From a virus (Duplodnaviria; Caudoviricetes): a stretch of DNA of 64,000 nucleotides. Of this stretch, positions 2,195-51,326 are shown one piece after another (the stretch's first letter is position 1; the number at the start of each line of letters is the position of its first letter). The notes beneath the pieces were generated by a model. The model made no database searches. It was not told the DNA's origin and saw only the letters and a list, made by a program, of their open reading frames with translations. Where the stretch lies: IMG/VR virus record IMGVR_UViG_3300028591_000141, positions 34,780 through 98,779 of that record; one strand, given 5' to 3'. A program made the position numbers and the translations under genes.

Positions 2195-2387
2195 TATACC
2201 GATTATTTTGAAAGACTTACCCGTGCACGTGCGCGGGTTTGTTTGCCTCGGCTCTGACTTCGAGCCCATCATTGTTATCAATGCACGTATGTCAAGAGAG
2301 CAGCAGCTGCGGACATACAAGCATGAGGTAAAGCATCTTCAGCGCGGTGAGATGTACAACGTTAACTATCACGAATACTGTATTTGA
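2187..2387 (+). CDS. minimal ImmA/IrrE-like metallopeptidase (anti-repressor)
   Basis: HExxH (HEVKH) preceded by IIVINARMS; overlaps the repressor stop. Confidence 0.75.
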   Translation: MDNIPIILKDLPVHVRGFVCLGSDFEPIIVINARMSREQQLRTYKHEVKHLQRGEMYNVNYHEYCI

Positions 2388-2400
2388 AGGAGGTACCATC

Positions 2401-2871
2401 ATGAAAAAACTACTCACTGTTATCCTGATCCTGGCACTGGCCGTGCCGGCAGCTGCCTTTGCAGATCTGCCCGACATCTCAAACCTGTCCTATGATGAAC
2501 TTGTCCAACTTAAAGACAGCATCAACCTCGCCATGTGGAACAGTCAGGAATGGCAGGAAGTCACAGTCCCGCAAGGGGTTTGGATTGTTGGGAAAGATAT
2601 CCCTGCCGGAACATGGACCGTTAAATGTGCGATTGACAATATTGCAGCTATTGTAATCGGTGACACCCTCAGCGAAACGGGCACAGACTTGAAACATTCA
2701 CAATATTATCACTCGGAACTCTTAGTGTCTCCTGATTATAAACGTTTTGAGAAAGATAAGGATATTACAGAGTATACTTTCACTGTAAAAGACGGAGATT
2801 ATATTCAGATAAAAAACGCATCCGTTATCTTTACACCTAATACCGGAAAGCCTTCCCTGGGATTCAAATAA
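2401..2871 (+). CDS. secreted/exported lysogeny-module protein
   Basis: Signal peptide MKKLLTVILILALAVPAAAFA; lies between immunity genes and integrase. Confidence 0.7.
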   Translation: MKKLLTVILILALAVPAAAFADLPDISNLSYDELVQLKDSINLAMWNSQEWQEVTVPQGVWIVGKDIPAGTWTVKCAIDNIAAIVIGDTLSETGTDLKHSQYYHSELLVSPDYKRFEKDKDITEYTFTVKDGDYIQIKNASVIFTPNTGKPSLGFK

Positions 2872-2881
2872 GGAGGCCATC

Positions 2882-4465
2882 ATGTCCACCGCTAAGAAGA
2901 AGCTGACAACCTGTGAACCGAAGACGGCCGTGGCCTATGCCCGCTATTCGTCCGCCCAGCAGCGTGACGTATCCATTGAGCAGCAGCTGCGGGATATCAG
3001 GGCATACGCTGAGCGAGAAGGCTATAAGATCATATATGAATATGCCGATCACGCGAAGTCCGGATTCAAGAATGTCGAACGCCGGACCCAGTTCCAGGCC
3101 ATGATACAGGCAGCTGCCTCCGGAGCTTTTGACACAGTCATCGCCTGGAAGGTTGATCGCTTTGGCCGGAATCGCAGGGAGTCAGCAACCTATAAAGGCC
3201 AGCTCGCAGACAACGGCGTTAAGGTCGTATATGCTATGGAACCGATCCCTGACGGGGCCGCCGGTGTTCTTACTGAAGGGATGCTGGAATCCCTGGCAGA
3301 ATGGTACAGCCGGAACATATCGGAGAATACAAAACGCGGTCAGCTGGATAACGCCGTCAAAGGATTGTATAACGGCCACGTCGCGTATGGATACCGCCGG
3401 AGCGCTGATAACCGCTTCGAGATCTATGAGCCGGAGGCTGCAGTCGTTCGCCGGATCTTCGATCTGTACGCTCAAGGACACTCTTTTGCGGATATTGTCA
3501 GAGAATTAAATGATGATGGCATCCTGACCAAATACGGGAATCCGTACCAGAAAGCATCCGTCTTGTATATCCTTACTAATGACAACTATATCGGAACTTA
3601 TCATTTTGCAGACGTCAGGATCCCGAACAGCCTGCCACCGATCATTGATATGGACTTATGGGAACGTGCCCAGGAGCAGCGTCGGAAGACATACAAAAAG
3701 CACGGTTGGGCGCCGGAAGATTACTTTCTCTCTGGCCGCTGCACCTGCGGCCTCTGTGGTTCTCCGATCTATGGAGCGTATGGATCCGGACGCGGAGGGA
3801 AAAGGTATCAGTATTATCACTGCAAAGGAATTAAAACAAAACCAAGAATCTGTACATCGCACTATATGCACAAGGAAGACATCGAAAAGCCGATCTTTGA
3901 CTTCCTGTTTAACAAGATCCTAAAAGGATCGCTTCTGGACGATTATATCGGCATGGTCTCCGATGTGCTGAAGGCCCGTCAGGCGACGTCGCCGAAGCGG
4001 CAGCTGGAAGCTGAACTCAGCGACACCACACGCCGGATCGACAACATCACCCGCGCCATCAGCGAGGGCATCTGGTCAAAGCAGACCGCCGCCATGCTCG
4101 AAGATCTGAATAAACGGGCGGAAGAACTGGAAAAGAAGATCGCTTACCACAAAATGACCGACGAAAAGATCATCGCGGACAGCCGAATCAGGTTTATCAT
4201 GGAAAAGGTAGCAGATGGAAAACGTGACGATCCGGAATACCTGAAAACAGTGATCAATGTCCTGGTCAATCATGTCAGAATCTTTGATCACTGGCTGGAA
4301 GTCGCCATCAACGCAACGGGAGCCATTGAACAGATACCGCCGGAAATCCTTCCGCCGCTTGACGTTCTGCCTGACGGGAACCGGTTCGAGTTTTGTAAAG
4401 TCAACGCCCCTTCACTTTACGTTCTCGAACCATATCCAGTGATCGTCTTCAAGATTGCAATTTGA
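2882..4465 (+). CDS. large serine integrase (phage A)
   Basis: AVAYARYSS catalytic motif, DRFGRN, recombinase domain, CxCGxCG zinc ribbon, coiled coil. Confidence 0.93.
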   Translation: MSTAKKKLTTCEPKTAVAYARYSSAQQRDVSIEQQLRDIRAYAEREGYKIIYEYADHAKSGFKNVERRTQFQAMIQAAASGAFDTVIAWKVDRFGRNRRESATYKGQLADNGVKVVYAMEPIPDGAAGVLTEGMLESLAEWYSRNISENTKRGQLDNAVKGLYNGHVAYGYRRSADNRFEIYEPEAAVVRRIFDLYAQGHSFADIVRELNDDGILTKYGNPYQKASVLYILTNDNYIGTYHFADVRIPNSLPPIIDMDLWERAQEQRRKTYKKHGWAPEDYFLSGRCTCGLCGSPIYGAYGSGRGGKRYQYYHCKGIKTKPRICTSHYMHKEDIEKPIFDFLFNKILKGSLLDDYIGMVSDVLKARQATSPKRQLEAELSDTTRRIDNITRAISEGIWSKQTAAMLEDLNKRAEELEKKIAYHKMTDEKIIADSRIRFIMEKVADGKRDDPEYLKTVINVLVNHVRIFDHWLEVAINATGAIEQIPPEILPPLDVLPDGNRFEFCKVNAPSLYVLEPYPVIVFKIAI

Positions 4466-4466
4466 G

Positions 4467-4488
4467 TGCAAAATCACTGCAAAATCAC
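4467..4488. repeat. tandem 11-bp repeat TGCAAAATCAC x2 right after the integrase stop
   Basis: Read directly; may be part of the serine-integrase att region. Confidence 0.5.
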
Positions 4489-4518
4489 GACAAAGACATG
4501 GAAGTCTGTACAAAGTAC

Positions 4519-4550
4519 AAAAAAAGCGCCCCGGGAGAATTCCCAGGGCG
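4519..4550 (-). terminator. intrinsic terminator of the phage A late/lysis operon
   Basis: CGCCC.GGGA-GAAT-TCCC.GGGCG hairpin with A7 on + (U tract on -). Confidence 0.7.
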
Positions 4551-4567
4551 TTACTTATAGTCAACAG

Positions 4568-4807
4568 TTATTCTTCTTCATCGGGCGGTACTTCTTCTTC
4601 CGGAATCTCTACAATTCCGGCATTCGCTGCATCGATCAGGCCTTCACCGATGATATAGGCGACAACAGCCGCCCCGGCCATGATCAGCGCTGTCACCTGA
4701 ACAGCTGTTTCCTGTTTGCCTCCAAAGGCAAGGATCAGCATAGTAACGAATTCAGCGATAGCCGCCCAGAATTTCCTGCTTGTCAGTTTCCTTTTCCAAT
4801 CGATCAT
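4568..4807 (-). CDS. holin
   Basis: IDWKRKLTSRKFW motif, two TM helices, acidic tail; in lysis cassette. Confidence 0.8.
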   Translation of the reverse strand: MIDWKRKLTSRKFWAAIAEFVTMLILAFGGKQETAVQVTALIMAGAAVVAYIIGEGLIDAANAGIVEIPEEEVPPDEEE

Positions 4808-5232
4808 TCGTTTGTACCTCCATTTATAATATTTTCATGCTCAGCGGTGTATGCCGCTGCCTTTGTGGTCCGTTCGGTCATATACTCTGTCAGAGCTGTT
4901 ATCTGGTCCTTTAATTTGTCGTGATCGTTTCCTGAATAAAAGTGCATCATCAGCGCCATCTGAGTATTTAACATATGCCCCATGTCGTCAGATTGCAGCT
5001 CGAACCTTTTATCGCCCAAGCTGAGCCGCGCCTCCACTTTCTTCATCCTCCCTTCCAACGCAGCACACCTGTCAGCAATCGCTTGTACTTTGTCACGGAC
5101 GGATATTTTACGGTAGGCTTCCCAGCCTTTGACCAGGGCAACCAGGACGCCGGCGACGGCCACGACCAACGCGACCACATACAGGATCGAATCGAACGTG
5201 ATCCCTGCCTCCGGCAGTTTTACTTCAGGCAT
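4804..5232 (-). CDS. lysis-module membrane protein (TM plus coiled coil)
   Basis: Start MPEVKL overlaps the endolysin stop; one TM helix; resembles 48713..49207. Confidence 0.65.
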   Translation of the reverse strand: MPEVKLPEAGITFDSILYVVALVVAVAGVLVALVKGWEAYRKISVRDKVQAIADRCAALEGRMKKVEARLSLGDKRFELQSDDMGHMLNTQMALMMHFYSGNDHDKLKDQITALTEYMTERTTKAAAYTAEHENIINGGTNE

Positions 5233-6110
5233 CAGACAACACTCCCTTTCTTTATTACCGCGCCATGGTAGTTTCCGGCGATTGCCTGGGCCTGTGTCAG
5301 GTCCAGACCGGATATGATCACACTGTAAACCGTGACAGGATCCGGCTGTGGTTTCAGACCGTCCACAGCAGCCTGCAGCTCCGCCCATGTACGCGGACCG
5401 CAGATCCCGTCAATGCCGAGCTTGTGGTCCTGCTGGAACTCCTTGACGGCTTTCTCGGTGGCCGTGCCGAAGTCTCCGTCAACGCCGCAGATTCCGAGAT
5501 TGTACCCGAGCTTGTCGAGCATGGTCTGCAGCTGCTTGACGTAGGTGTTCCGGTTGCCTCTCCGGATCGTCGGCAGCTTTGCCGGCTGCGGTTCGGGCGC
5601 GGGTGCCGGCACGGGCTCCACACCGTCAAAAGAGACGTCTTTCAGCTCGCCCCAGTGCGTCCAGCGAGCCTCCGTCACCTTGGAGGTGATCACGCCCTTC
5701 TGGGTGCCATAGGCTTCGATTACGGTGCCGTTCCCGATAAACAAGCCGACATGGCCGTACTTTTTGTCCTTCTCCTTCCAGGTGAATACCGCCGTGCCGG
5801 GCTTCAGTTCCTGCCCGTCAGAGCGCTGGCCTTTGGACAACGTACCATTTGCCACGCACCATTTTCTGTACATAGTGTCAGATCCGTGGTACATGGTAGA
5901 CCCGAGCTGCTTGAACGCCCAGGTGAACATACCGGAGCAATCGGCGACATTGTGGCCCACCCACTTCTGGCCGTATTTCACGGTTTGCTCCCGCGTGGCA
6001 CGGTCCTGCTGGGCCTGCGTCCACTTCCCGCCGACAGCGCCCCATATATAGCCCCATTTATTTGATAAAGCGAATTGGAACTTACTGATCAGGTCGTTTG
6101 CCGTGATCAT
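5232..6110 (-). CDS. endolysin: NlpC/P60-type peptidase plus peptidoglycan-binding domain
   Basis: DCSG and HVGLFIG catalytic motifs; Pro-rich linker; DGDFGxxTExAVKEFQ PG-binding repeat. Confidence 0.9.
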   Translation of the reverse strand: MITANDLISKFQFALSNKWGYIWGAVGGKWTQAQQDRATREQTVKYGQKWVGHNVADCSGMFTWAFKQLGSTMYHGSDTMYRKWCVANGTLSKGQRSDGQELKPGTAVFTWKEKDKKYGHVGLFIGNGTVIEAYGTQKGVITSKVTEARWTHWGELKDVSFDGVEPVPAPAPEPQPAKLPTIRRGNRNTYVKQLQTMLDKLGYNLGICGVDGDFGTATEKAVKEFQQDHKLGIDGICGPRTWAELQAAVDGLKPQPDPVTVYSVIISGLDLTQAQAIAGNYHGAVIKKGSVV

Positions 6111-6216
6111 CGTGCTTTCCTCCCTTCCACCTTCTCGGATCTGCGCCCATGACGATTATCCAGTCGACCACCACGAGAACGACCGCGATCGCGGCCACAT
6201 AGACCCACCAGTGCAT
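6082..6216 (-). CDS. small membrane protein (44 aa; not in ORF track)
   Basis: GGAGGTG RBS; MHWWVYVAAIAVVLVVVDWIIVMG... Confidence 0.55.
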   Translation of the reverse strand: MHWWVYVAAIAVVLVVVDWIIVMGADPRRWKGGKHDDHGKRPDQ

Positions 6217-6408
6217 ACGGCACCTCCAAAAATATGTTTGTTCCCCTTGTCTCGCAAAGGGAACTATGAGAAAATAAGCATAGAAAAAGAGCGCTGCGGG
6301 TTAGGCCCCCGCGAACGCTCTCACAGGTGGAGAATGTGGTGCGAGCACACCCTCCAAGATGAGTTTATCACATCCCTCCACCATTACGCAAGGAAGGATG
6401 TGTTTTTT

Positions 6409-7407
6409 GTGTCCGATAATTCTGAACTGTTCCGAAACGAACTGATCGCGAAGCTCGAATCAATGCTCCCGCCGGAGCAGCTGAGGGCCGTCCTGGCTGC
6501 CTTTGACACGACCTCGGCGTCCTATCAGATCAGCCGGCAGCAGCTGGACCTGATCGCGACTGATGGCTTCCCGGAGCCCGTCAAATGGTATCTGGCATCG
6601 AAGGCCGTCGCCAACCGGAGCCCCGGCACCGTCAAGCAGTACCGTTATAAACTGCTACACTTCTTTGACACTGTCAAAAAGCCGTTCCAGGACATCCGGC
6701 CCAACGACATCCGCGTCTACCTCTTCCAGTTCAAGAAGGAGCGGAACGCGTCCGACTGTTACCTGGAGAGTGTCCGGATCACGCTCAACGGCTTTTTTGG
6801 GTGGTTGGTAGCCAACGAATACCTCATGCGGAACCCGTGCGCGAACGTGGAGAAGATCCATTTCAACGCGAAGCGCCGGGAACCGCTCAGCATGGAACAG
6901 CTGGAGACGCTGCGGTGGAACGTCCAGGGCGTCCGGGAAAAGGCGCTGATTGACTTCCTGTTCTCCACCGGCTGCCGCGTCTCTGAGTGCGCTGACGTCC
7001 GCCTGTCGGACATCGGCTGGAAGGACCGTTCCGTTCTGATCCGCCACGGCAAGGGCGATAAGGAACGCATTGTTTATTTCAACGCAGAGGCGCTTGTCTC
7101 CATGCGGAAATACATCGACACCCGCCAGGACGACACAGACGCGCTGTTTGTCAGCGTCAAGGCGCCACACGCCGCGATCGGCGCCCATGCGCTGGAGAAT
7201 ATCATCAGCAAGGTCGCCGGCAGGACAGATCTGCACGTTTTCCCGCACAAGCTCCGGCATACCTTCGCCACGGCCGGGATGAACAGCGGGATGCCGCTGC
7301 ACGTCCTCCAGCAGCTGATGGGCCATGCCAAACCGGAGACCACCATGATCTACGCGAAGCAGATGCAGGAAGGCCTCCGGGCCGAACATCAGCGGGTGTA
7401 CGCTTAA
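6409..7407 (+). CDS. XerD-like tyrosine recombinase between tail and lysis genes
   Basis: Full catalytic set TGCRVSE, GKGDK, HKLRH, MGH, TMIY; N-terminal SAM-like domain; GTG start at 6409 after AGGAAGG. Confidence 0.9.
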   Translation: MSDNSELFRNELIAKLESMLPPEQLRAVLAAFDTTSASYQISRQQLDLIATDGFPEPVKWYLASKAVANRSPGTVKQYRYKLLHFFDTVKKPFQDIRPNDIRVYLFQFKKERNASDCYLESVRITLNGFFGWLVANEYLMRNPCANVEKIHFNAKRREPLSMEQLETLRWNVQGVREKALIDFLFSTGCRVSECADVRLSDIGWKDRSVLIRHGKGDKERIVYFNAEALVSMRKYIDTRQDDTDALFVSVKAPHAAIGAHALENIISKVAGRTDLHVFPHKLRHTFATAGMNSGMPLHVLQQLMGHAKPETTMIYAKQMQEGLRAEHQRVYA

Positions 7408-7412
7408 TAAGT

Positions 7413-7450
7413 TTCCGGCAGGAGGTGCTTCCCCCTGCCGGTTATTATTT
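7413..7450. terminator. terminator between the recombinase and the convergent tail-tip gene
   Basis: CCGGCAGG...CCTGCCGG hairpin followed by a T-rich run. Confidence 0.65.
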
Positions 7451-7480
7451 TGACTGTCGGTGCTGCGTTAAATCAGTCAT

Positions 7481-7930
7481 TTATAACTTTGTATATAATG
7501 CCCTAACTTTAATTGTCCTGTTTGCTCCAACCTGTGCAAATGATTTATTCATGCCAAGCAACTGAACATACTGTACCGTTCCGTCTACAATACTCAAATT
7601 CGGATAAATACCATCTGTTGTTGTCAAATAATAAAGATCATCATTCTGAACAAACGTTGCCCCAATCAGAATATACCCTGCTATTGTTGCCGATGCTGAA
7701 ACCGTTCTGCCAGAACTTGAAGTTAATTCAATATTATAATCATAATAATGAACTTTTTTGACATTACTATTTAACGAATCAATCTGATCCTGGACAGATG
7801 TGTTCCCGACAGCGCCGAGTTTCGTGTCGAGAAGGTTGGAATTATAGTTGATATCGTCCACGCTGGCCGGGTCTGTTCCCTGGGGGATCCTCAGTCCGAT
7901 GTTCGGGGTCGGGGTTCCTGTTGCTGCCAT
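7481..7930 (-). CDS. tail-tip/fibre-like protein with a variable AT-rich C-terminal domain
   Basis: N-terminus TPNIGLRIP...DDINYNSNLLD typical of tail-fibre anchors; last gene of the tail operon; composition break at DSLNS. Confidence 0.65.
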   Translation of the reverse strand: MAATGTPTPNIGLRIPQGTDPASVDDINYNSNLLDTKLGAVGNTSVQDQIDSLNSNVKKVHYYDYNIELTSSSGRTVSASATIAGYILIGATFVQNDDLYYLTTTDGIYPNLSIVDGTVQYVQLLGMNKSFAQVGANRTIKVRALYTKL

Positions 7931-7932
7931 AA

Positions 7933-8310
7933 TTAATTACCACCTTTCTGATTAGTTGTGAATTGGACAAAACAATCAAGGGCGTCAACGTCATCCATGG
8001 ACAGCGTCAGCCCGGGAATAGAGATCGGAATCTGAACCGGTTTGACCTTCAGATCCACATCAATGTCACTGAGTTCTTTCAACCTCTGCCGGAACGCAGC
8101 AGCTGCTTCCTGACTCTCGAACGTGATGGATCCATCAGCATTGACTTTTGCGCTGTCGGTCATCTTTTTTTCTTCATCGAGTTGGAAGTCCCACTGAGGC
8201 TGCAGCGCCTGCTTGATCTTGAACAGATCAAAGGCCAGCTTGATCGGAAGATCTTGCTGGCCAAGTTTTGTTAATGCTTTGTATGCTTTTATTACCTTGA
8301 ATTGTTTCAT
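7933..8310 (-). CDS. tail-module hypothetical protein
   Basis: Co-oriented ORF with RBS in the tail operon. Confidence 0.6.
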   Translation of the reverse strand: MKQFKVIKAYKALTKLGQQDLPIKLAFDLFKIKQALQPQWDFQLDEEKKMTDSAKVNADGSITFESQEAAAAFRQRLKELSDIDVDLKVKPVQIPISIPGLTLSMDDVDALDCFVQFTTNQKGGN

Positions 8311-8319
8311 GCGTCCTCC

Positions 8320-8616
8320 TTATTCACCGAGTACATCTATCGGGACGGTCAGCGCGATACGAAGATTCCCGCTTTCCGCAAGCACAATAGCCTCGATCAG
8401 GTCGGTATATCCGCGGTATTCCTTACTCACTTCACCGCCAATCAAGCCCTGGATAAAGTTGGTTTCGTCAGTGTTGGAAAAGACCGGAATAATCTCCATC
8501 ATGCTCTTTCCGACAAATTCGATATAAAGAACTGATGTCACACCGATCACCGTCGCGCCCATGAACCGGATAGGAAACTCTTTCCCGGTTGCTGTTCTGA
8601 CAGACAATTCGTCCAC
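8320..8616 (-). CDS. tail-module hypothetical protein
   Basis: Co-oriented ORF; analogous to 54937..55203. Confidence 0.6.
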   Translation of the reverse strand: MDELSVRTATGKEFPIRFMGATVIGVTSVLYIEFVGKSMMEIIPVFSNTDETNFIQGLIGGEVSKEYRGYTDLIEAIVLAESGNLRIALTVPIDVLGE

Positions 8617-8630
8617 GGTATCCCTCCTTT

Positions 8631-11600
8631 TTAAGAATGTCCAAGATAGTCAGCGATCGACTTCGTTGTCGTTTGTTTGTTTGTGAAGTCGACAGCCGTC
8701 ACGACGTTGAATCCGTTTTTCCAGTTTGCGCTCTGATAACCATAGAAGCCGTTGCCGACATAGAGATTGGTGCCGTACAGGTAATTAGCCTTCAAGTAGC
8801 TTGCTGTCACAGATCCGGCGGTCAGGCTGTCAATGGTCGCCTTCGCAGAGTCACCGTTGTCAAGCGATGTCTTAACACCGGAGCTACCCTTTCCATACGT
8901 CACCGAACCGTTAGCAATCTTTGCCGTCCCGATCGAGCCGTCAGTCAGGTTCGTGGCGTTCATTGTCACGCCGCTGCTGAAGGTGATCGAGTCGACCGTG
9001 ATGTTGCCTTTGATTGTCGCCGCCGTGGCCGTCAACCGACCGGAATAGTCGACAAAGAACGGATATGTCCACGCGCCATAGCTGGACCCGTTCCAATACC
9101 TGGAACCGATCGCGAACGCCATTGTTCCGGCGGTGATGGAGTTCGGCGAGCTCATCCAGGCACCATACTGCGTTGTTGCGCTGCCAGGGTACACCGTACT
9201 CAGTCGCTGGATGTTGTTGCTGGTTATCTCCCATCCGGCTATCTCGCCCTTGGTAGAAACCATGGCGCCATCATATCGGACGAAAAACGGATACTGTTCC
9301 GGATTGCTACCCTGCTTTGTTCTTATCGCAAAGGCGGCATCGGTTGTGCTGACTGAACTCGGCGCCTGAATCATAACCTTGTATTCAGTACCGCCGGATG
9401 TGCTTGTTTTCGACAGCATATTGCTGCCGATATCCCATCCGCCGATCTTGCCGGATGTAGCAGTGATCTTTCCGTCAGTGGCAACGGTAAAATATGTCGA
9501 TGTCAGTGAGAATGTGCCGCCGGACGCGATTTGTATCGCTGTCGGAGTGATATAAATGCCGCTTCCGGAAGACCCGAGGCTGTTAAACTTCAGGGAACTG
9601 AGCTCGATCTTATTGTCGCTGATCGTGACATACGATTTCGCGATATAGTTCGATCTGATCGCGCTCTCAGCGTTTGAGGCCCTCGTTACTTCCGCTGTTA
9701 TGCTATTTGCGGTTTGTGTAATTCTTGTGCCAAGGGCCCCCTCGGCATTTGTTGCCCTTGTGACCTCAGCCGTAATACTGTTCGCGTTCTGCGTGATCCG
9801 GCTGGAAAGCTGAGTTTCACCGTTCCTGCGCTGTGAAACTTCGCTTGCGATCTGATTTGCCTGGATTGTCAGCTGAGCGGTGTTTTCGACCAGCTGATCG
9901 TTCATTGTTGCCTGAGCCTGGGCCATCAGCGTGATCTCTTTGTCATTCTCGATGATCGCTGTGGTATGTCTGACCTCAGCGCCGTGATCAGAAACAAGGA
10001 CCCAGTTGTAGCCGTCCCATGCGTACTCTTTCGGGCCCTCCATGCTGTTCCAGTCGTAGGTGGCGGCCAGCGTGTTCCAGGACATGGTCGCGGCCTTGTT
10101 CCACGTTACGACACTATATCCAGGCTCGGCCTTGATCCAGTGATCGCCCATATTGACGATGACACTTGAATCGTTCCGCGGATCCGTCAGTCGGATATAC
10201 GTCACGCCCTTCGTGGCGACGGAGGCCACAGCCATGTCGATCTCCTGCTCGGCGACTGTCAGCCGTGTTTCAAAACTGGTGAAGGATTCGCCGTCGTAGA
10301 TCTTCTGCCAGCTGCCGCCGTTCCATGTGTACATATTCGGCTCTGTAGCACCGCCCAGCTGCTGCCATGTGTGCTGCGCCGCCCATGACCAGGTGTGCTC
10401 GGCAACTTCATCCCACGCATAGCGCCGTTCAGACTCAACCCAGACATCGCCGGTATTGAATGTGTCCAGCCCATAATCAGCCGGGTCCGGAGGTGTCAGT
10501 GAGATATAAGTCTTGCTGAATCCTGTCGCCTGGACATTCAGGCCCTGGAAGTCCATGGCCGTCTGCCAGGTCAGTCCGCCGTCCCTGGTGAAGCCGATAC
10601 CGTACCTGGTGCCGTCATACTGGCCGATGCGGATCTGCTGGCCACTGTCCTGCGGGTTGATGATGTAGATGTTTCCGGCGTCCCAGTAGAAATTTGTCGT
10701 GCCCAGGATCCGGATCAGGTTTGCCTGCAGCACGCCGGAGGTGATGTAGTCAGCTACAAACTGCCCGTCAATGCTCCAGGCAGTGCCATATGTGCCGTGG
10801 TATCCGTCCTGACTGAAAGCGATGCCGCCGTTGTTCATGCGGATGATATTGACGGCGTCTTCGATGTCCGGCGCGTCCATGATCAGGATCTCGTCCGGCT
10901 CGCCGTCGTTGTCGGTATCGTTCATGACGACATAACCGCCCAGCTGGCCGGTGACGCGCTCCGACACCGTCCGCGCCGTATCCGCCAGGGTGGATGTCGC
11001 GGTGTACGCCTGGTCAGCCGTCTTTTTGATGCCTGTGATCGTGCCGGCGATCGACACCCGGATGGATCCGAGCTCGATCTTGCTATACTGCTCCGTCAGG
11101 ACATTCCATCGGGTCCGCACGCACTTTGCGGAGGCATTGACACCCAGCGCGTCAAAGTAGACGTGCACGGTGTCGCACAGATCCACGCGTTCTTTGATTT
11201 CCTCAAGCTGCACATAGCTCAGCTGAAGATTGACCACCGGAACGCCGATGTCATTGCTGTCAATGTACGCCTGAGCGGCCGTCCGCAGCTGGCTCTCGGT
11301 CGGTTCTTCCTCGAACCGGTCTGTCAGATCCACCGGGCAGATTTTTGTGAAGCTGAACGTGCCGGGCGCGTTGATGGTCTTTTCCGGCAGCGTGACAACG
11401 TATTTGGTTTCCGGATTGCACCAGTACGGATAGATCCCGGTGTATACGTTGGCGTTGTTCTCTTCCTGCTTGATGCTTGTGAGGTTCTTCCCGTAGCGAA
11501 TCGTAACGCCGCGGTCTGTGCCCCTGTTTGCATTAAAGATGCAGGAATAGCCGTTGTAAGCCCATTCACCGTGCCAGTGATCGAGCAGAGAGCCGGAGGT

Positions 11601-12062
11601 CCCGCCCATCAGCGCCCGGATCGATGTCGGCTTAATGACCGTCAGCGTGCCGGTGGCCTCGCTCATATCAGACGCGAACGTGAACGGGCACGGGGACGGC
11701 GTGCAGTTGGCCGTCAGAGCGATCAGCGCGGACTGCACACCGACCGCCGAGAAGGCGCCGTCGACATAGCCGCTCAGGTCATAACACAGGTGCTGGGCGT
11801 TGACGGTCACAATGCCGTTCAGCGGTTTCGATATGTTGTAGATCCGGAAGGGCTGCGGGTTGTCGTTAAAGTTCGGCTTGGCAAGGATGATCATCCGAAG
11901 CGCCAGATCTGAATAATGCTGGCCGCTGATCGGATACGTCATTTCAAGTTCATACTGTCCGTTGCGTTCTTCCTGCACTTCACAGGTGATCGCATCAGAC
12001 AGTGCTCCAAGGCCGAACGATCCCCAGCTGGTGGAGTCAGCCGGGTGCAATACAGGGATCAT
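8631..12062 (-). CDS. tail spike/baseplate hub (Tal-like phage minor structural protein)
   Basis: N-terminal GLGALSDA..CEVQEERNGQYELEMTYP domain; ITQTANSITAEV coiled repeats; GKIGGW repeats; follows Dit. Confidence 0.85.
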   Translation of the reverse strand: MIPVLHPADSTSWGSFGLGALSDAITCEVQEERNGQYELEMTYPISGQHYSDLALRMIILAKPNFNDNPQPFRIYNISKPLNGIVTVNAQHLCYDLSGYVDGAFSAVGVQSALIALTANCTPSPCPFTFASDMSEATGTLTVIKPTSIRALMGGTSGSLLDHWHGEWAYNGYSCIFNANRGTDRGVTIRYGKNLTSIKQEENNANVYTGIYPYWCNPETKYVVTLPEKTINAPGTFSFTKICPVDLTDRFEEEPTESQLRTAAQAYIDSNDIGVPVVNLQLSYVQLEEIKERVDLCDTVHVYFDALGVNASAKCVRTRWNVLTEQYSKIELGSIRVSIAGTITGIKKTADQAYTATSTLADTARTVSERVTGQLGGYVVMNDTDNDGEPDEILIMDAPDIEDAVNIIRMNNGGIAFSQDGYHGTYGTAWSIDGQFVADYITSGVLQANLIRILGTTNFYWDAGNIYIINPQDSGQQIRIGQYDGTRYGIGFTRDGGLTWQTAMDFQGLNVQATGFSKTYISLTPPDPADYGLDTFNTGDVWVESERRYAWDEVAEHTWSWAAQHTWQQLGGATEPNMYTWNGGSWQKIYDGESFTSFETRLTVAEQEIDMAVASVATKGVTYIRLTDPRNDSSVIVNMGDHWIKAEPGYSVVTWNKAATMSWNTLAATYDWNSMEGPKEYAWDGYNWVLVSDHGAEVRHTTAIIENDKEITLMAQAQATMNDQLVENTAQLTIQANQIASEVSQRRNGETQLSSRITQNANSITAEVTRATNAEGALGTRITQTANSITAEVTRASNAESAIRSNYIAKSYVTISDNKIELSSLKFNSLGSSGSGIYITPTAIQIASGGTFSLTSTYFTVATDGKITATSGKIGGWDIGSNMLSKTSTSGGTEYKVMIQAPSSVSTTDAAFAIRTKQGSNPEQYPFFVRYDGAMVSTKGEIAGWEITSNNIQRLSTVYPGSATTQYGAWMSSPNSITAGTMAFAIGSRYWNGSSYGAWTYPFFVDYSGRLTATAATIKGNITVDSITFSSGVTMNATNLTDGSIGTAKIANGSVTYGKGSSGVKTSLDNGDSAKATIDSLTAGSVTASYLKANYLYGTNLYVGNGFYGYQSANWKNGFNVVTAVDFTNKQTTTKSIADYLGHS

Positions 12063-12074
12063 CGCTCCACCTCC

Positions 12075-12794
12075 TTAGATTTCCCACCACCTGGGCGTGA
12101 TTGCAACAGTGCTGACCGCTCCGCTGAACCCGATCGAATTGGATCCGGGCGCCAGCGTGGCGAATTCGCTTGTGCTGCTTGAAACAATCGCGTTTTTGTT
12201 GTTCCCGCTGCCGTCGTAACAGTTCATTGTTTCGCAGTCGATATAAACCGGAACGGTCGTGTCGCTGATGGTGAACACCGTGCCGTTGACCGTTACCGTG
12301 CCCTCAACGCCTCCGCCGGTAACAAGCAGCAACGGTCTGGAAGCGAACGCGGTCGGGTTTGTGATCGTGCCAGGGATGATAAACGTCTCCGATGTTTCTC
12401 CGCTTTTCAGAAACCGCTGCGGTTTGCAGTTGAAAGTGATCTTTGCCCGCCCGACGCGGGTCATGATGTTGTCGATGTCAACTGGTCCGACAAAGTGCGC
12501 CAGCCGGAAGTGATCCGGGTCGAAATCATCCTCCAGGCGCCGGTATCCTGTCGGTCCGTAGAGCCATGCCGCTACACTTGAAAAAGCGCCGGGGACGGCG
12601 TGCTCTGATCCGTCACCGGCGAATATTTCATAATCCTGATCGACATTGTCCCATGCGTCCTGCGGGCGGATGATATCCCCGCTCCGGCCTGGCACCGAGT
12701 AGACGTCAACCTTTCTTTTCGGTTTTACGTAGAAGGGAGCGGCCTCGACATAGATCCCGAGGCTGTCCGATGTGACATTGTTCCATGTGATCAT
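12075..12794 (-). CDS. distal tail protein (Dit-like)
   Basis: Directly after the tape measure gene; FNCKPQRF and ITPRWW motifs. Confidence 0.8.
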   Translation of the reverse strand: MITWNNVTSDSLGIYVEAAPFYVKPKRKVDVYSVPGRSGDIIRPQDAWDNVDQDYEIFAGDGSEHAVPGAFSSVAAWLYGPTGYRRLEDDFDPDHFRLAHFVGPVDIDNIMTRVGRAKITFNCKPQRFLKSGETSETFIIPGTITNPTAFASRPLLLVTGGGVEGTVTVNGTVFTISDTTVPVYIDCETMNCYDGSGNNKNAIVSSSTSEFATLAPGSNSIGFSGAVSTVAITPRWWEI

Positions 12795-15559
12795 GCGAAT
12801 ACCGCCTCCCGTCTGTCAATACTGTGCTGGATCCGTTCCATCACGATGTCGGCCAGCGTCCGGACATCCTGGCCCTCAGCGCCGTATACGTTGATCGTCA
12901 CGTCATGCGGGCCGGCTTCCTGGCGTACAATGTCGCGGAGGTCATCCAGGGCGCCGACGAACTCAGGCCGCTTTTCAGCGATACCGATCACGGTGGGCTG
13001 TGTGAAGACACCGCCCTTGTCGTACCAGCTGACGTTCAGCGACGGCGCGCTCATGTAGCCATCAGAGCCATCCATGTCCCACACACCGGACCAGTAGAAA
13101 TGCGGCGTGCTGATGTGCGGAATTGTCCAGCGAACATTCGCAAACAAATTTTCAATGCTGCTTAGTGCATAGCTGATGCTTGTGACAAACGGGTTCAGAT
13201 TCAGGAGATTGATGTTATCAATGGCATCCTTCATGTAATACTTGAAGTTGTAATTCTTGCCACTGAAAGTCTTTTCCATGTCTGACAAAGTAGTCTCAAT
13301 GGAAGTCTTGAAGGATGAGAAATCCGCCTTCCCATTCTCGACGAATGTATTCAGTTCCGAACCTGTTTCAAACGCCTGGTCACCGATACCGTCGATTGCT
13401 GTCGTGATGCGGTCAATATTCTGCGGAATGTTCTGCTCGCGCTTGGTTTCATCATTAAGTTCCTTAATGGAACCCGCCAGGCTGCTGATGTTCTTCGAGG
13501 CAGTATTAAGGCCCTTTGCCCCGGAAGATACTGTCTCAAGCGCCGGGCCGAGCGTTTCAAGTTTCTCGGCGATCTTCTTATTGGCCATGTCGTTGGCCTT
13601 GTTCGTGATGTCGCCGATGCCCTTCGCGATACCGCCCAGGGTCGCGACCAGGTCAAATACGCTTGTCTGATTGGCCAGCCGGATCGCAGCGTCCGCAACC
13701 GTGCTGAAGCCTTGGCCTGCCTTGACCGCCGCTTCGCCGATGCTGTCAAACACACCGGCCAGCTTCTCGAGGATGTTCGCGATACTGTCATTAATGCTGA
13801 CGACACCGTCAGAGATTGAAGTGATGATGCCGCTGATGGCGTCTCCGATCGCCGTGATCGGATCTGCCAGCGACTCATTGAACCCGCTGAACGCGTCAAC
13901 GATCAGCCCAAGATTCGTTCCGATGCTGTCAACAATACTGACAACCGTTTCGCCGATCTGTTTAATGAGACCGCTGATGCTGTCAATAATCGGGCTGATC
14001 TGTGAAACGATACCGTTAAAGGAATCAATAATTTCCGGCAGCTTCTCAGCCACGGTCTTGACCATGTCCTGGATCGCCGGGATAAACGGCTCGAATCCGG
14101 AAATGATGGTCTTGATCGCCTCAGCGATCCCGGGCGCGTGTTCGTCAAGTGCCGCGATGATTTCCCCGCCAAAGTCTACGAACGCCTTCAGGATGTTCGG
14201 CAGGCCGCTCTCTTCGTTGCCGATGGCGTTGACCAGCTGGCCGATGATTTCCCCGCCCTTTTCAAACACCTGGGGCAGGATCTCGCCGAGCTTGCCGACG
14301 ATTTTCTGCAGGGCATCGCCGATGGTCGTGAACAGGGAGGATCCATCTTCCGTCTGGCCGGAAATGCCTTCGACCAGTTTGGTGATCATTTCCCCGCCCT
14401 TTGTGATGATGGTCGGGAACAGGTCCGCGATCCCTTCCGTCAGGGCTCCGACTGCCTTAATGGCGCCCTCCGCCAGTTCCGGGGCGTGCTCAATAATGCT
14501 GCCGACCAGGCTGACAATGATATCCGCGCCGGCAGTGATCAGCGTCGGAAGCGCCTCAACAATCGCACCGCCCAGAGTGGTCAGGATATCAGTCGCAAGC
14601 GGGACAATCGTCGGCAGGTTCTCCGAGATCGCACCCAGGATGGCCTTCAGTATCTCACCGCCGGTTTCGATCAGCGTCGGCAGCACTTCCTTGATCTTTT
14701 CGGATATGCTGGCAATGCCTTCCTTAATCAGGGCGATACCTTTCGAGGAATCACCGGCAAAAATTTGCGTTAAGCCGTCCATGACCGTTGTGATCCCGGG
14801 CAGGAAGTCAGCGATCATCCGGTTCTTCAGCCCGTCAAACGACTGTGTCATGTTCTGCAGGCTGTCCTGGAACGCAGCTGACGCCTTCACATCTTCCTCG
14901 GACATGACAATTCCGAGATCATGGGCCTGCTGACGCATGGCCTCAATATCGGCAGCTGACGTGTTCAGCAGAGCGCCCATTTCGGTCGCACCCTTGCCGA
15001 AAAGTTCCTGGGCGATCCGGGCGCGTTCCGTTTCATCTTCGACGCTTGTCAGCGCCATGACGGTCTTGTTCCAGAGCTCTTCCCGGCTCATGCTCTGCGC
15101 GTCTTCCGCAGATATGCCCAGCTTCTGGAACGCGTCAGATCCATTCGCCGCTGCCGTGGACAGCTTGACCATGGAAGTTTTCAGAGACTCCATGCTGGTC
15201 CCGCTGTGCTGCGCTATGAAATCCCATTCCTGATAGGCATCCGTAGACAGCCCGATCTTCTGGGACATCTTGTCGATATTGTCGCCATAGGCGGCTGTGG
15301 CGGACGCTGCATCGTAAATGCCCTTGACCAGGGCACCCGTGCCGGCAACCGCCGCGGTGACCGCTGTGGCCATGACTTTTGCGCCCTTTTTGACGGCGCT
15401 GCCGAAGCCCCCGGTGAATTTACTACCGGACTGCTTGCCGGCCTTCTCGCCGGCTTCTTCGCCCGCGGAGGTGAGCTGATTCGTCATCTCGCGCTGCGAG
15501 CCCTCCATAGACGGAACGATTGTAACTATCGCCCGTGCTACTTCAATGCCTTCAGCCAT
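12791..15559 (-). CDS. tape measure protein (phage A)
   Basis: Long Ala/Gly/Ile-rich helical protein; DNIDKMSQKIGLS..AYQEW motif; synteny. Confidence 0.9.
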   Translation of the reverse strand: MAEGIEVARAIVTIVPSMEGSQREMTNQLTSAGEEAGEKAGKQSGSKFTGGFGSAVKKGAKVMATAVTAAVAGTGALVKGIYDAASATAAYGDNIDKMSQKIGLSTDAYQEWDFIAQHSGTSMESLKTSMVKLSTAAANGSDAFQKLGISAEDAQSMSREELWNKTVMALTSVEDETERARIAQELFGKGATEMGALLNTSAADIEAMRQQAHDLGIVMSEEDVKASAAFQDSLQNMTQSFDGLKNRMIADFLPGITTVMDGLTQIFAGDSSKGIALIKEGIASISEKIKEVLPTLIETGGEILKAILGAISENLPTIVPLATDILTTLGGAIVEALPTLITAGADIIVSLVGSIIEHAPELAEGAIKAVGALTEGIADLFPTIITKGGEMITKLVEGISGQTEDGSSLFTTIGDALQKIVGKLGEILPQVFEKGGEIIGQLVNAIGNEESGLPNILKAFVDFGGEIIAALDEHAPGIAEAIKTIISGFEPFIPAIQDMVKTVAEKLPEIIDSFNGIVSQISPIIDSISGLIKQIGETVVSIVDSIGTNLGLIVDAFSGFNESLADPITAIGDAISGIITSISDGVVSINDSIANILEKLAGVFDSIGEAAVKAGQGFSTVADAAIRLANQTSVFDLVATLGGIAKGIGDITNKANDMANKKIAEKLETLGPALETVSSGAKGLNTASKNISSLAGSIKELNDETKREQNIPQNIDRITTAIDGIGDQAFETGSELNTFVENGKADFSSFKTSIETTLSDMEKTFSGKNYNFKYYMKDAIDNINLLNLNPFVTSISYALSSIENLFANVRWTIPHISTPHFYWSGVWDMDGSDGYMSAPSLNVSWYDKGGVFTQPTVIGIAEKRPEFVGALDDLRDIVRQEAGPHDVTINVYGAEGQDVRTLADIVMERIQHSIDRREAVFA

Positions 15560-17514: not shown

Positions 17515-17843
17515 CTCTCGAGGTTGAGAACAATGCTCGACACAAGCCCGGTCGGAGAATCCCAGACCCGGGGCTCGCCGTTGATGGTATAGGTGTTTCC
17601 GTTGTACCTGATCCGGTCGCCGGCGAGAACATCCGACCCGGGCGGCATATAACAGGTGTATCCGTCAGTGATGCCCTGGATCCTGCCGTCCTGAGACAGA
17701 GAAGTCCCGGCGGGCTGCATGGAGCAGCCGCTTATATCCAGTTCGTCCGGATTGTCCCAATCAGGGTAAACCGTGCCACGTTCGACGATCGTGCCGGCTC
17801 GGATCCGCGTCACTGTGTCGTTCACCCAGGAAGGAAGCGCCAT
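17502..17843 (-). CDS. head closure (stopper) protein
   Basis: DVLAGDRIRYNGNTYTINGEP motif; synteny. Confidence 0.7.
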   Translation of the reverse strand: MALPSWVNDTVTRIRAGTIVERGTVYPDWDNPDELDISGCSMQPAGTSLSQDGRIQGITDGYTCYMPPGSDVLAGDRIRYNGNTYTINGEPRVWDSPTGLVSSIVLNLERWDG

Positions 17844-18469
17844 CAGAACACCCCCCTCACCTTGTAGGGTTCGAGGGTCTCAAGGTCAGTAGACTGCAGC
17901 GCACCAGCTCCGCCTCCATTCGCCCAGCTTGCACTGTAAGAGATGGAAACACCGCCCGCGCTTTCGCTTGCCACGCCGTTCGGCGACACAAGCGCCCTGG
18001 TGGCCCGTCCGGAGATGATTTCCTTAATGGATCCCATCATCGTGTCCGGGACGCCTGCCGTATAAGCGACAGTGATCTCCGTTTTCCGGGAAACCGGCGC
18101 GACATCGAACAGATGGACGATTCCGTTCTGCTCAAACGTGAAATCCGTCCAGGCTTCGCCGTCAATCGTTACGGTCGAAACGCCTGTGATAAACGCCGCC
18201 GGCAGCTGCACCAGGAAGTCGTTATTAACCCGCTTGATCCTTCCGTTCCCGTAGAGCAGGCGCTCAGAGAACTCGCAGGCCTGCGGAGGAGATACATGCC
18301 AGCCGCAATGATTACGTACGCCCATGGAGGCCGCTGAGATGCTGGCGGGAATCCGAACGTCACCGGCGAACTTATTCGCGGTCATCGTGTTGAAATCCGC
18401 CTGGGACAGCATATCCGCCAGGGCATCCGCATCCGTGATGGTGTACCCCCAGTTCGTTACAAGGCTCAT
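17843..18469 (-). CDS. head-tail adaptor protein
   Basis: SESAGGVSISY motif; follows the capsid gene. Confidence 0.7.
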   Translation of the reverse strand: MSLVTNWGYTITDADALADMLSQADFNTMTANKFAGDVRIPASISAASMGVRNHCGWHVSPPQACEFSERLLYGNGRIKRVNNDFLVQLPAAFITGVSTVTIDGEAWTDFTFEQNGIVHLFDVAPVSRKTEITVAYTAGVPDTMMGSIKEIISGRATRALVSPNGVASESAGGVSISYSASWANGGGAGALQSTDLETLEPYKVRGVF

Positions 18470-18651
18470 TTTGTCGCCGCCTTCCTGGATTTGTTCGCAG
18501 GCTTAACAGCCTTTACAGCAGGATTTTCGACCTTCGCCTTGGGCGGTTCCACCGCCTTCGCCGCGGGCCGCTTAAACTCGACAGCGCCTGCCGGCTGCTG
18601 GCCTTCTTCGTACTCGAGCTTCATGCCGTTGTACAGGTAAGTCTTCAGCAT
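18466..18651 (-). CDS. small Lys/Ala-rich head-associated protein
   Basis: Ends KPANKSRK; directly after the capsid gene. Confidence 0.6.
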   Translation of the reverse strand: MLKTYLYNGMKLEYEEGQQPAGAVEFKRPAAKAVEPPKAKVENPAVKAVKPANKSRKAATK

Positions 18652-50756: not shown

Positions 50757-50852
50757 AATAAAATCATCCTTTCTTTTTGTTCGTTAATTCATTCTTTATC
50801 ATTTTTGATAATTACCGTTTCTCTGTGATATAATCAATACAGAGGTGGTTTT

Positions 50853-51177: not shown

Positions 51178-51192
51178 TATTGTTTTCCTCCG

Positions 51193-51300: not shown

Positions 51301-51326
51301 GTTTTACCTCGTTAAATCATTTATGA

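Follow-up and report, generated by a model that had tools for sequence, protein, structure and literature searches.

The tyrosine recombinase and the 149-aa tail protein encoded next to each other in a sheep-gut prophage probably form a Rin-type module that would recombine the receptor-binding tip of the tail and that stands here in a one-cassette state; from the sequence comparisons described below we put the probability of this reading at about 0.7. Both genes lie in a stretch of 64,000 nucleotides that was analysed as a whole and is called the window in what follows. An initial annotation had drawn attention to the locus, and its observation as a whole was confirmed, with every sequence feature that it described found in its place. 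The elements of the locus are the following.

5232-6110, minus strand: endolysin with NlpC/P60 and PG_binding_1 domains (domain matches, gene order)
6409-7407, plus strand: Xer-like armless tyrosine recombinase, putative tail-tip invertase (332 aa; PF00589 and a SAM-like N-terminal domain)
7415-7451, plus strand: hairpin CCGGCAGG...CCTGCCGG followed by a T-rich run, read off the sequence and situated between the convergent genes
7466-7475, minus strand: outer boundary motif TGATTTAACG (type 2), 5 nt beyond the stop codon and with the inverted 8-mer CGTTAAAT inside it
7484-7762, minus strand: AT-rich C-terminal head cassette of foreign composition, codons 57-149 (from GC3, the tips of homologues and contigs of other samples)
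7764-7776, minus strand: in-frame crossover-type site CGTTAAATAGTAA, coding for S-LNS-N, with two synonymous differences from the consensus CGTTAAACAGCAA
7777-7930, minus strand: residues 1-51 of the distal tail protein, its constant N-terminal part (alignment of 118 homologues)
7933-8310 and 8320-8616, minus strand: two small ORFs upstream of the 149-aa gene (relatives of the 125-aa ORF are in the same place in L016 and L023)
8631-12062, minus strand: Tal (PF06605 and PHROG tail proteins)

The recombinase and the last tail gene

Comparison of the recombinase with PF00589 gave an E value of 9e-35, and a domain search located a SAM-like domain at its N-terminus and found the arm-binding domain to be absent. 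The enzyme had been described as a complete Xer-like recombinase, and all RKHRHY residues are there (R190, K215, H280, R283, H306 and Y315); the protein can be aligned to solved XerA structures with this set kept. The best NCBIfam model was XerA-like, under its cut-off. A role as XerC/XerD chromosome-dimer resolvase was rejected, the score being under all NCBIfam equivalog cut-offs: 199.9 versus 220 for XerA, 151.6 versus 335 for XerC and 145.3 versus 329.6 for XerD. More than 1300 homologues were found, and the closest relatives (P0126-P0133) are 83-89% identical. The recombinase is also distinct from the integrase, as had been claimed, since a separate large serine recombinase is encoded at 2882-4465. 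This 527-aa protein of the integrase type, about 3 kb away, is the sole PF00239 protein. A serine invertase of the Gin/Cin/Min/Pin type was rejected as well: no small PF00239 enzyme adjoins the fibre segment, and the neighbouring enzyme belongs to PF00589.

The orientation of the recombinase gene towards the final tail gene was borne out, with 6409-7407 on the plus strand converging on 7481-7930 on the minus strand. The hairpin between the two genes is likely the terminator of the recombinase gene; it was absent from the output of a simple terminator scan. The 149-aa gene is the last tail gene because the upstream tail genes (7933-12062) place it there, and the recombinase splits the usual run from tail to lysis genes in the window. 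Neither the 149-aa protein nor the products of the two small upstream ORFs had a match in Pfam, PHROGs or NCBIfam. An AlphaFold2 model of the 149-aa protein, of low confidence (mean pLDDT 56) and used for secondary structure alone, has a helix that ends at the site and beta strands after it. The protein has two parts, a constant anchor of about 55 aa, which in the model ends in the helix, and a predicted beta-rich head that would be the putative host-binding tip.

The abrupt change from GC-rich to AT-rich DNA that had been reported at the in-frame site is real. GC content drops from about 57% (7800-7930) to 29-40% (7450-7800), and GC3 is 0.66 in codons 1-50 of the 149-aa gene and 0.26 in codons 57-149, next to 0.81 in the recombinase gene, 0.71 in Tal and 0.74 in the lysin gene. 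To judge by its GC3, the head cassette is an apparent recent import, foreign to the phage.

The two boundary motifs and the cassette between them

The in-frame site was recovered as TCGTTAAATAGTAAT at 7763-7777 on the minus strand, where it codes for SLNSN, and an oppositely oriented copy, CGTTAAATCAG, lies on the plus strand at 7466, 5 nt beyond the stop codon; both had been placed there by the initial annotation. Its statement that the inverted segment codes merely for SLNQSFITLYIMP* also holds, as read-through of the outer copy gives that peptide. We counted five copies of CGTTAAAT in the window against 1.65 expected (five or more in 1 of 100 shuffles), and four of the five occupy equivalent spots of two fibre genes (7466 and 51310 on the plus strand, 7769 and 51867 on the minus strand). 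The motif TGAWTTAACG was found four times (0.23 expected). The inverted pair of the window matches at 11 of 13 nt, has a longest perfect stretch of 8 nt and ranks 24th among the 34 inverted repeats of the 4-kb region, so that it is significant because of the comparison with other loci and not from the window alone.

The outer copy had been proposed to be the inverted partner arm of the site. This did not stand: it is not canonical and represents TGAWTTAACG, a recurrent intergenic motif that precedes several small genes in phage B, L006 and L026. As a canonical partner site it was rejected because it fits the inverted consensus only with a 1-nt gap; it does fit the type-2 motif of L016, L026 and L031. 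The inner site itself departs at two positions from a consensus that is otherwise invariant. No canonical inverted partner site and no second stored cassette were found at the window locus, which has a single head cassette, and the 98.8-kb record contains no further site copies besides those in the phage B fibre gene. For these reasons the prophage is unable to alternate between stored tips.

Relatives of the N-terminus or the recombinase were not found by scans of genome contigs, nor did a single recombinase sequence used as query recover any relative among viral contigs; an alignment query with the recombinase did recover relatives there. An exact 20-mer across the recombinase flank and the outer motif matched no other viral contig. 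At least 120 N-terminal homologues of the 149-aa protein exist. In a comparison of 118, residues 1-55 are 81-100% identical to those of the window in most columns and 46-65% in a few substituted ones, and from residue 57 on identity is 1-18%. The collapse of identity predicted to occur at the motif was thus seen between residues 55 and 57, and the tips of the 118 homologues fell into 108 clusters. Head families are common to different scaffolds. A diversity-generating retroelement was rejected as the source of this variation: the tips are wholly unrelated and do not vary at set positions, and no reverse transcriptase occurs among the Pfam-scanned ORFs, neighbours of the fibre gene included.

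Assembled contigs from sheep and cattle samples, in which rare forms are dropped, showed alternative cassettes at the window locus. In run X4 a contig of 3855 nt agrees with the window over 6898-7489 and 7767-8700 and carries 395 unmatched letters in between; contigs of run X5 join 7483 to 7763 or 7767; and in run X1, the probable source sample, a contig departs from the window sequence after 7475. The breaks at 7763/7767 and at 7475-7489 agree with the prediction that cassette boundaries lie at both motifs. Replacement of the cassette is therefore real, because other sheep and cattle contigs hold other cassettes between the same two boundaries. In these contigs, which lose rare forms and therefore do not bear on inversion, joints with a switch of strand were not present at the locus; intermediates of an exchange, circles and events in trans were not observed either. 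The same N-terminus with the same hypervariable boundary was also found without an adjoining recombinase (L001, L003/L011, L006, L007, L009 and L010; the L006 piece, without such a recombinase, is 3.4 kb), and when L003 is compared with L011 the 10 nt past the outer site differ as well.

Loci of the recombinase family

The initial annotation had linked the recombinase to the tail gene, and the family keeps that position: in about 17 viral contigs its recombinase is situated between the lysin and the last tail gene. The recurrent order in L016-L036 is serine recombinase, lysin (minus strand), tyrosine recombinase (plus strand) and tail genes (minus strand), with the lysin adjoining the recombinase in 17 loci, the serine recombinase present in 6 and downstream tail genes in 5. 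The recombinases of these loci are 51-63% identical to that of the window. The 13-nt site CGTTAAACAGCAA is kept as DNA over at least five unrelated N-terminal scaffolds. The codon ahead of it is always NCG though the residue may be A, S or T, and the Leu of the site is always TTA, a codon used for 14% of Leu elsewhere in the same genes; conservation thus goes beyond the amino acids LNS, in agreement with the initial annotation. Sites with at most two mismatches from the consensus numbered 26 downstream of the recombinase genes versus 2 in 107.5 kb upstream. The gene strand carries the inner site in every case; its outer counterpart is inverted, adjoins the stop codon of the recombinase gene and in most loci has a conserved variant sequence of its own, CGTAAWACAGCAA.

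Two or more cassettes behind inverted site copies were found in L017, L018, L019, L030, L031 and L035, with one or two silent cassettes per relative. Positions 7027-7390 of L017 correspond to 7773-7410 of L018 in inverted orientation (364 nt, 99.7% identity); the flanks of this inversion are colinear at 95-97%, and its junctions fall inside a 14-nt repeat. The claim that the system is not a switch of the Gin/Cin/Rci type consequently fails for the family, which is one of tip invertases, given the silent cassettes of the relatives and the L017/L018 inversion. Synteny, sites conserved as DNA, inverted partners and this inversion are the reasons for which we regard the recombinase family as Rin-like tip invertases. 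In the proposed mechanism the anchor would join the head at the in-frame DNA site, with the consensus CGTTAAACAGCAA and the form CGTTAAATAGTAA in the window. In relatives the DNA between site copies contains a head that is expressed, frequently together with one or two silent ones, and the recombinase would act on the CGTTAAAYAGYAA sites and invert the intervening DNA, with a change of tip as the outcome. The window lineage changes its tips by replacement of what lies from the site to the motif TGATTTAACG, as the contigs of other samples show; the replacement is proposed to take place by recombination at the site with the DNA of another phage, with the recombinase as the likely catalyst.

A single cassette within inverted sites is the commonest layout (L023, L024, L029, L033, L036 and the window). 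Such a geometry might serve as an on/off phase switch, in which inversion between the 8-nt CGTTAAAT copies at 7466-7473 and 7769-7776 flips the one cassette; the protein would be cut to about 66 aa, and therefore some virions would be without this head. We consider this very unlikely. The geometry does recur, with perfect 14-nt repeats in L023, and the outer frame gives nothing but junk there (38 residues) and 13 residues in the window; however, no locus of the set was found in the off orientation, the perfect repeat in the window is just 8 nt and the off state has no evident benefit.

The frequency of the one-cassette layout bears also on the possibility, a doubtful one in our estimate, that the module works by cassette exchange, in which the recombinase pairs the inner and inverted outer sites with those of another phage or of an excised cassette, with no stored alternative, and draws on an open, community-wide pool of tips. 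The outer variant CGTAAWACAGCAA could hinder flipping in cis and permit exchange of like with like; moreover, the same flanks carry different cassettes by sample with boundaries at the two motifs, related heads are found on unrelated scaffolds that share just the 13-20 nt site, and the GC3 of the cassette is foreign to the phage. However, none of the expected intermediates, circles or trans events was encountered, identity is bound to collapse at the edges of a conserved site under any mechanism, and within a lineage homologous recombination would leave the same picture if it acted in the recombinase gene and the conserved N-terminal part. The outer motif of the window, moreover, is an intergenic motif that occurs without recombinases, and the sequence just past the outer site differs between L003 and L011. 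A specific form of this idea, which we put forward tentatively, is that single cassettes between heterospecific sites (inner CGTTAAAC..., outer CGTAAWAC... or TGATTTAACG) may be swapped between phages by the recombinase in trans. If true, recombinase-mediated cassette exchange with heterospecific sites would have an equivalent in nature, one that taps more than 100 tips over at least six unrelated scaffolds, including phages without the enzyme.

Ordinary tail-fibre mosaicism would account for the variation with no part for the recombinase: the head would have come in at a conserved linker, through recombination of the homologous or short-homology kind, and the neighbouring enzyme would be inactive or have a different task, for example dimer resolution or a second function in integration. 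The identical hypervariable boundary in relatives without an adjoining recombinase and the deviation of the window site and outer motif from the canonical sites are in favour of it. In cultured Clostridium and Terrisporobacter phages, distant homologues (32% identity) are situated at the tail/lysis junction, flanked by tail and holin genes and co-oriented with the late genes, and for that reason the position of the recombinase may serve another role. We nevertheless find mosaicism unlikely as the explanation, since the synonymous positions of the site are conserved over unrelated scaffolds, inverted partner sites adjoin the recombinase gene, a documented inversion ends in the sites and the recombinase has its full set of catalytic residues.

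Several observations weigh against the Rin-type module that we prefer. The window has one cassette and the record no other site copy outside phage B, the window site is off consensus at two positions, and its outer motif TGAWTTAACG is present in phage B and L006 without a neighbouring recombinase. The same anchor and boundary occur in phages with no recombinase adjoining, and the distant homologues at the tail/holin position are co-oriented with the late genes.

Comparison with known switches and the phage B fibre gene

The Rin shufflon was described in Bifidobacterium breve and Bifidobacterium longum prophages by Mavrich et al. 2018 (PMC6109161). Rin is a tyrosine recombinase of the Xer-like, armless kind and a separate enzyme from the phage integrase; it flanks a receptor-binding-protein locus with a constant N-terminal part, an in-frame short asymmetric repeat and dissimilar C-terminal cassettes of 95-100 aa, and inversions between related genomes end in the repeats (PMC6109161). 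The module described here likewise has an armless Xer-like enzyme apart from the phage integrase and beside a tail-tip gene, a constant N-terminus that continues in frame, across a short repeat, into C-terminal cassettes of dissimilar sequence and, in the relatives L017/L018, an inversion that ends in the sites. The likeness is one of layout and logic of the locus. The two systems differ in site sequence (rix is TTCCCTAACCC, versus CGTTAAACAGCAA or CGTTAAATAGTAA here), in the length of the constant part (168 aa in Rin versus 17-126 aa) and in the number of cassettes, of which Rin stores 3-5 and half of the loci here, the window included, one. Unlike those of Rin, the phages here are of the ruminant gut and of Firmicutes type.

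Gin of Mu, Cin of P1, Min of p15B and Pin of e14 are serine invertases that flip alternative C-terminal fibre parts. As in those systems, the recombinase gene of our family adjoins a fibre gene with alternative C-terminal parts, and L017, L018 and L031, with two cassettes placed tail to tail, are arranged like the G segment of Mu; however, the enzyme belongs to the tyrosine family (PF00589), dependence on an enhancer or Fis is not expected, and the window is without a second cassette. Serine-invertase fibre switches are also cited in PMC6109161, and the R64/IncI1 pilV shufflon with Rci is cited in PMC9881135. Our family resembles Rci in having a tyrosine recombinase, short asymmetric in-frame sites with one conserved arm, site variants and swapped C-terminal tips of an adhesin. 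In R64 the Rci tyrosine recombinase acts on seven sites and four segments of pilV, which, unlike the gene studied here, encodes a plasmid pilus adhesin and not a phage tail protein; the site sequences are unrelated.

Recombination between conserved motifs of T-even distal fibre genes was reportedly described by Tetart et al. in 1998, and the modular theory of Susskind and Botstein is said to have invoked boundary (linker) sequences of lambdoid phages. Here, too, short conserved boundary sequences join unrelated adhesin modules, so that different scaffolds share a pool of tips. In the T-even and lambdoid cases the exchange is ascribed to homologous or short-homology recombination and no site-specific enzyme is dedicated to it, whereas here a dedicated recombinase and inverted partner sites adjoin the junction. 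The likening of the system to integrons did not hold, with 79.5 bits for TIGR02249 (cut-off 265) and 53.8 for PRK15417 (cut-off 435). An integron was rejected: there is no attC-like site and no array, and the locus has one in-frame domain cassette with 13-nt inverted in-frame repeats. The resemblance is one of concept alone (promoterless cassettes, bounded by recombination sites, from a large pool), since the cassettes are in-frame protein domains and not whole genes.

The host range of phages is largely set by the tips of their tail proteins, and to our knowledge tyrosine-recombinase tip switches are still little studied. Their first description dates from 2018, in Bifidobacterium prophages (PMC6109161). 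The window locus is a one-tip version of this known, Rin-type host-range switch, and together with its relatives it represents a new and abundant recombinase-and-site family of ruminant-gut phages, whose scale is given by the more than 1300 recombinase homologues and by a single 55-aa anchor that carries over 100 different tips. Switches with stored cassettes coexist in it with one-cassette loci, and a single 13-nt junction is where the same heads pass from one unrelated scaffold to another. Should exchange between genomes also be the work of the recombinase, this would account for the common pool of receptor-binding domains in the gut phage community, and the enzyme would be a small tool from nature with which phage tips could be swapped; otherwise the window is no more than a reduced example of a switch class already known.

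The window holds a second fibre gene with the same motifs, that of phage B.

51327-52223, minus strand: phage B fibre gene with two direct in-frame sites
51862-51874: phage B in-frame site CGTTAAATAGCAA
51574-51586: phage B in-frame site CGGTAAATAGCAA

The claim that both site types recur at this gene was correct for the copies at 51875 and 51310, and those at 51191 and 50782 proved to be the variant TGAATTAACG; the copy reported at 51587 is present, in the form CGGTAAATAG with one mismatch. TGAWTTAACG follows the gene at 51310, 51191 and 50782. No homologous recombinase was found beside the phage B fibre gene. The last 81 aa of its product are 63% identical to the tip of P0019, a protein with the N-terminus of the window type.

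The constant N-terminus and hypervariable tip of the last tail gene

The tail block on the minus strand of the window was of the siphovirus type and ended in a gene for a 149-aa protein:

12791-15559, minus strand, tape measure
12075-12794, minus strand, Dit
8631-12062, minus strand, Tal
between Tal and the 149-aa gene, minus strand, two small ORFs
7481-7930, minus strand, 149-aa gene, end of the tail block
6409-7407, plus strand, tyrosine recombinase (332 aa), convergent with the 149-aa gene
5232-6110, minus strand, NlpC/P60 endolysin, past the recombinase
2882-4465, large serine recombinase (527 aa), past the recombinase

The recombinase on the opposite strand breaks the usual tail-holin-lysin order, and no ORF of holin size was visible between it and the endolysin start at 6110 (window 6111-6408). 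The runs containing window sequence were sheep and bovine gut metagenomes.

A protein-collection search with the 149-aa protein gave 261 homologues, of which 118 were examined. Apart from a few substituted columns, residues 1-55 showed 81-100% identity to the window protein per position; residue 56 was N or K, and from residue 57 onward identity was 1-18%, the C-termini of the 118 homologues forming 108 clusters. In a low-confidence model (pLDDT 56) a predicted helix (residues 43-55) stops at the 13-nt in-frame junction with the tip, referred to here as the site, and beta strands follow. The initial annotation had paired the recombinase with a swappable C-terminal cassette in this gene, and every feature that it named was present in the window, including a GC switch from about 57% to 29-40% near 7780. 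GC3 of the gene was 0.66 over codons 1-50 and dropped to 0.26 over codons 57-149, compared with 0.71-0.81 in Tal, lysin and recombinase and 0.32 in the fibre gene of phage B, which also lies within the window; these values mark the C-terminal part as foreign to its phage. The head cassettes of the window and of loci L003-L036 on other viral contigs were all AT-rich (GC 0.28-0.45 versus 0.43-0.62 in the upstream N-terminal DNA), whatever the scaffold or phage, which suggests a base composition proper to the cassette pool.

In the window, TCGTTAAATAGTAAT, which encodes SLNSN, lies on the minus strand at 7763-7777, and CGTTAAATCAG lies on the plus strand at 7466, 5 nt beyond the stop codon of the 149-aa gene. 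CGTTAAAT occurred five times in the window versus 1.65 expected, four of the copies being at equivalent spots of the two fibre genes. By itself the inverted pair (11/13 nt) was unremarkable among the 34 inverted repeats of a 4-kb region; it is the other loci that give it significance.

The recombinase family and its site

The window recombinase combines a catalytic domain (PF00589) with a core-binding domain of the SAM-like type, and lacks an arm-binding domain. It is XerA/XerC/XerD-like, scoring under every NCBIfam cut-off, and keeps R190, K215, H280, R283, H306 and Y315. More than 1300 homologues were found at E < 1e-30, and a profile scan of viral contigs yielded 21 loci (4.5-13 kb each) with recombinases 51-63% identical to that of the window. 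In 17 of these loci the recombinase had a lysin as its neighbour on the other strand; within the same 4.5-13 kb pieces a serine recombinase was seen upstream in six and tail genes downstream in five. Since this gene order recurs, the window recombinase is not a chance insertion. Distant homologues (32% identity to it) are located in two cultured phages, with the last tail gene on one side and the holin on the other, all in one orientation:

Clostridium phage phiCp-D (L062), 21639-22616, late-gene orientation, Xer-like 'integrase' before the holin/endolysin pair
Terrisporobacter phage TPELB_ph1 (L063), 17645-18640, late-gene orientation, Xer-like 'integrase' before the holin/endolysin pair

The tail/lysis junction thus seems a widespread home of such recombinases. 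TPELB_ph1 has a second, larger integrase past the lysin. In L020:2896-5763 and L028:2795-5197 recombinases of the same family converge on fibre genes that are large (955 and 800 aa), AT-rich and devoid of the site.

Downstream of the recombinase genes, CGTTAAACAGCAA was found inside the last tail gene, on the gene strand, and was perfect in 11 loci. The inverted copy nearer the recombinase was also perfect in L017, L018, L023 and L031; it was the conserved variant CGTAAWACAGCAA in L019, L024, L027, L029, L030, L033 and L035, and the related CGCAAAACAGCAA in L036. With up to two mismatches allowed, the DNA downstream of the recombinase genes had 26 matches, whereas the 107.5 kb upstream had 2. 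Through the site, unrelated heads are attached to six or more unrelated constant parts, whose lengths range from 17 to about 126 aa. The site was conserved as DNA in the recombinase-linked loci, and not only as the amino acids LNS, which the initial annotation had named as a refuting outcome: its Leu codon was always TTA (14% of Leu codons elsewhere in the same genes), its Asn codon AAC except in L029 (AGC, Ser) and its Ser codon AGC, and the codon preceding it was always NCG, encoding A, S or T. By arithmetic from the codon usage of the same genes, five independent scaffolds would all have such codons by chance with a probability of about 1e-12.

Inversion in relatives and replacement in the window

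Single cassettes bracketed by inverted sites were common in the family (L023, L024, L029, L033, L036), and L019, L031 and L035 had two cassettes each. L030:7799-9300 holds three sites, two outer and one inner, and is therefore a multi-cassette shufflon. L017 and L018, from different metagenomes, were colinear in both flanks at 95-97% identity, and L017 7027-7390 corresponded to L018 7773-7410 reversed at 99.7% identity, with both inversion junctions within the 14-nt repeat GCGTTAAACAGCAA. L017 stores the shared 119-aa head silently behind the outer site, and L018 has it fused to the gene; since their second cassettes are different, replacement occurred too. The same logic is found in the Rin shufflon of Bifidobacterium prophages, which comprises an armless tyrosine invertase, rix sites of 11 bp, a constant Rc part and Rv cassettes that vary (PMC6109161). 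The module of recombinase and site is real, and it is of a known kind, a Rin-like tyrosine-invertase tip switch.

At the window locus there is one cassette and the site has diverged; the tip there has been replaced and not switched. The window site, CGTTAAATAGTAA, has two synonymous differences from the consensus, and CGTTAAATAG is retained by same-lineage contigs from gut metagenome runs X4 and X5, which makes this a stable variant of the lineage. Contigs of four runs were compared with window 6800-8700. A 3855-nt contig from the bovine run X4 matched 6898-7489 and 7767-8700, with 395 other letters replacing 277; X5 contigs joined 7483 to 7763 or 7767, and one contig from X1, the probable source sample, followed the recombinase flank up to 7475 and was unlike the window beyond. 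The segment between the two motifs has thus been replaced while the two flanks remain similar, as the initial annotation had predicted. Of the interpretation in the initial annotation, the recombinase-plus-site module, the site as DNA and the replacement between motifs stood; its denial of an Rci-type switch was wrong for the recombinase family, given the site-bounded inversion between L017 and L018.

Cassette exchange by the recombinase is a possible explanation of the replacement. A collapse of identity at the edges of conserved sites is expected under any mechanism. Homologous recombination in the flanks, replacing the cassette within a lineage, would look the same. Relatives that share the N-terminus and its boundary (L001, L003/L011, L006, L007, L009, L010) had no recombinase beside the tail gene; in L003 and L011 the inner site is perfect despite this, and the outer site is a variant. 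The record behind L001 has a distant recombinase homologue 12 kb away, in the early region. Transfers between unrelated scaffolds had only the 13-20 nt of the site in common, which favors site-specific or very-short-homology recombination. Judged by sequence identity (31-83% aa), these transfers are old. Heads were shared between scaffolds: the silent head of L018 and the tip of P0043, a protein with a window-type N-terminus, were 67% identical, the last domain of the phage B fibre 63% identical to the P0019 tip, and the L004 head 83% identical to that of P0065.

L003 and L011 come from one 30,028-nt metagenome contig, whose ends (L003:5001-5485, L011:1-576) have the same constant N-terminus and different heads (P0078, P0103), both followed by the inverted variant site ATTGCTGTATTACG. 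No window-family recombinase was found in the two pieces. The contig represents either within-sample polymorphism of a circular phage of about 29.7 kb or a tandem pair.

The phage B fibre gene and the outer motif

The window locus holds one cassette, and the only further site copies in the 98.8-kb IMG/VR record were in phage B's own fibre gene (51327-52223, minus strand):

51862-51874, in-frame site copy, direct
51574-51586, in-frame site copy, direct

With two direct in-frame sites, the middle domain of about 95 aa is itself site-bounded. L004 combines three parts: a window-type N-terminus, the phage-B-type middle domain joined to it, and a head attached to the latter at a second site.

The outer motif of the window was rejected as a canonical partner site. 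It is TGATTTAACG, a recurrent motif (TGAWTTAACG) found four times in the window versus 0.23 expected:

7466-7475, TGAWTTAACG
50782-50791, TGAWTTAACG
51191-51200, TGAWTTAACG
51310-51319, TGAWTTAACG

Oriented like the genes, it preceded series of small genes that follow fibre genes in phage B (three copies), L006 (four, 2347-3194) and L026 (three, 4145-5551); L004, L016 and L031 had one such copy each. In several unrelated phages it directly preceded the ribosome-binding sites of consecutive small genes. No recombinase homologue was found next to the phage B fibre gene, and none was visible in the 3.4-kb piece of L006. CGTTAAA is common to this motif and the tip site, in inverted orientation. 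Candidate roles of the motif are those of regulatory element, module-boundary linker and recombination half-site. Family-2 glycosyltransferase genes were seen near or directly after the hypervariable tail gene in L007:550-1590, L010:5519-6502 and window 53964-54944.
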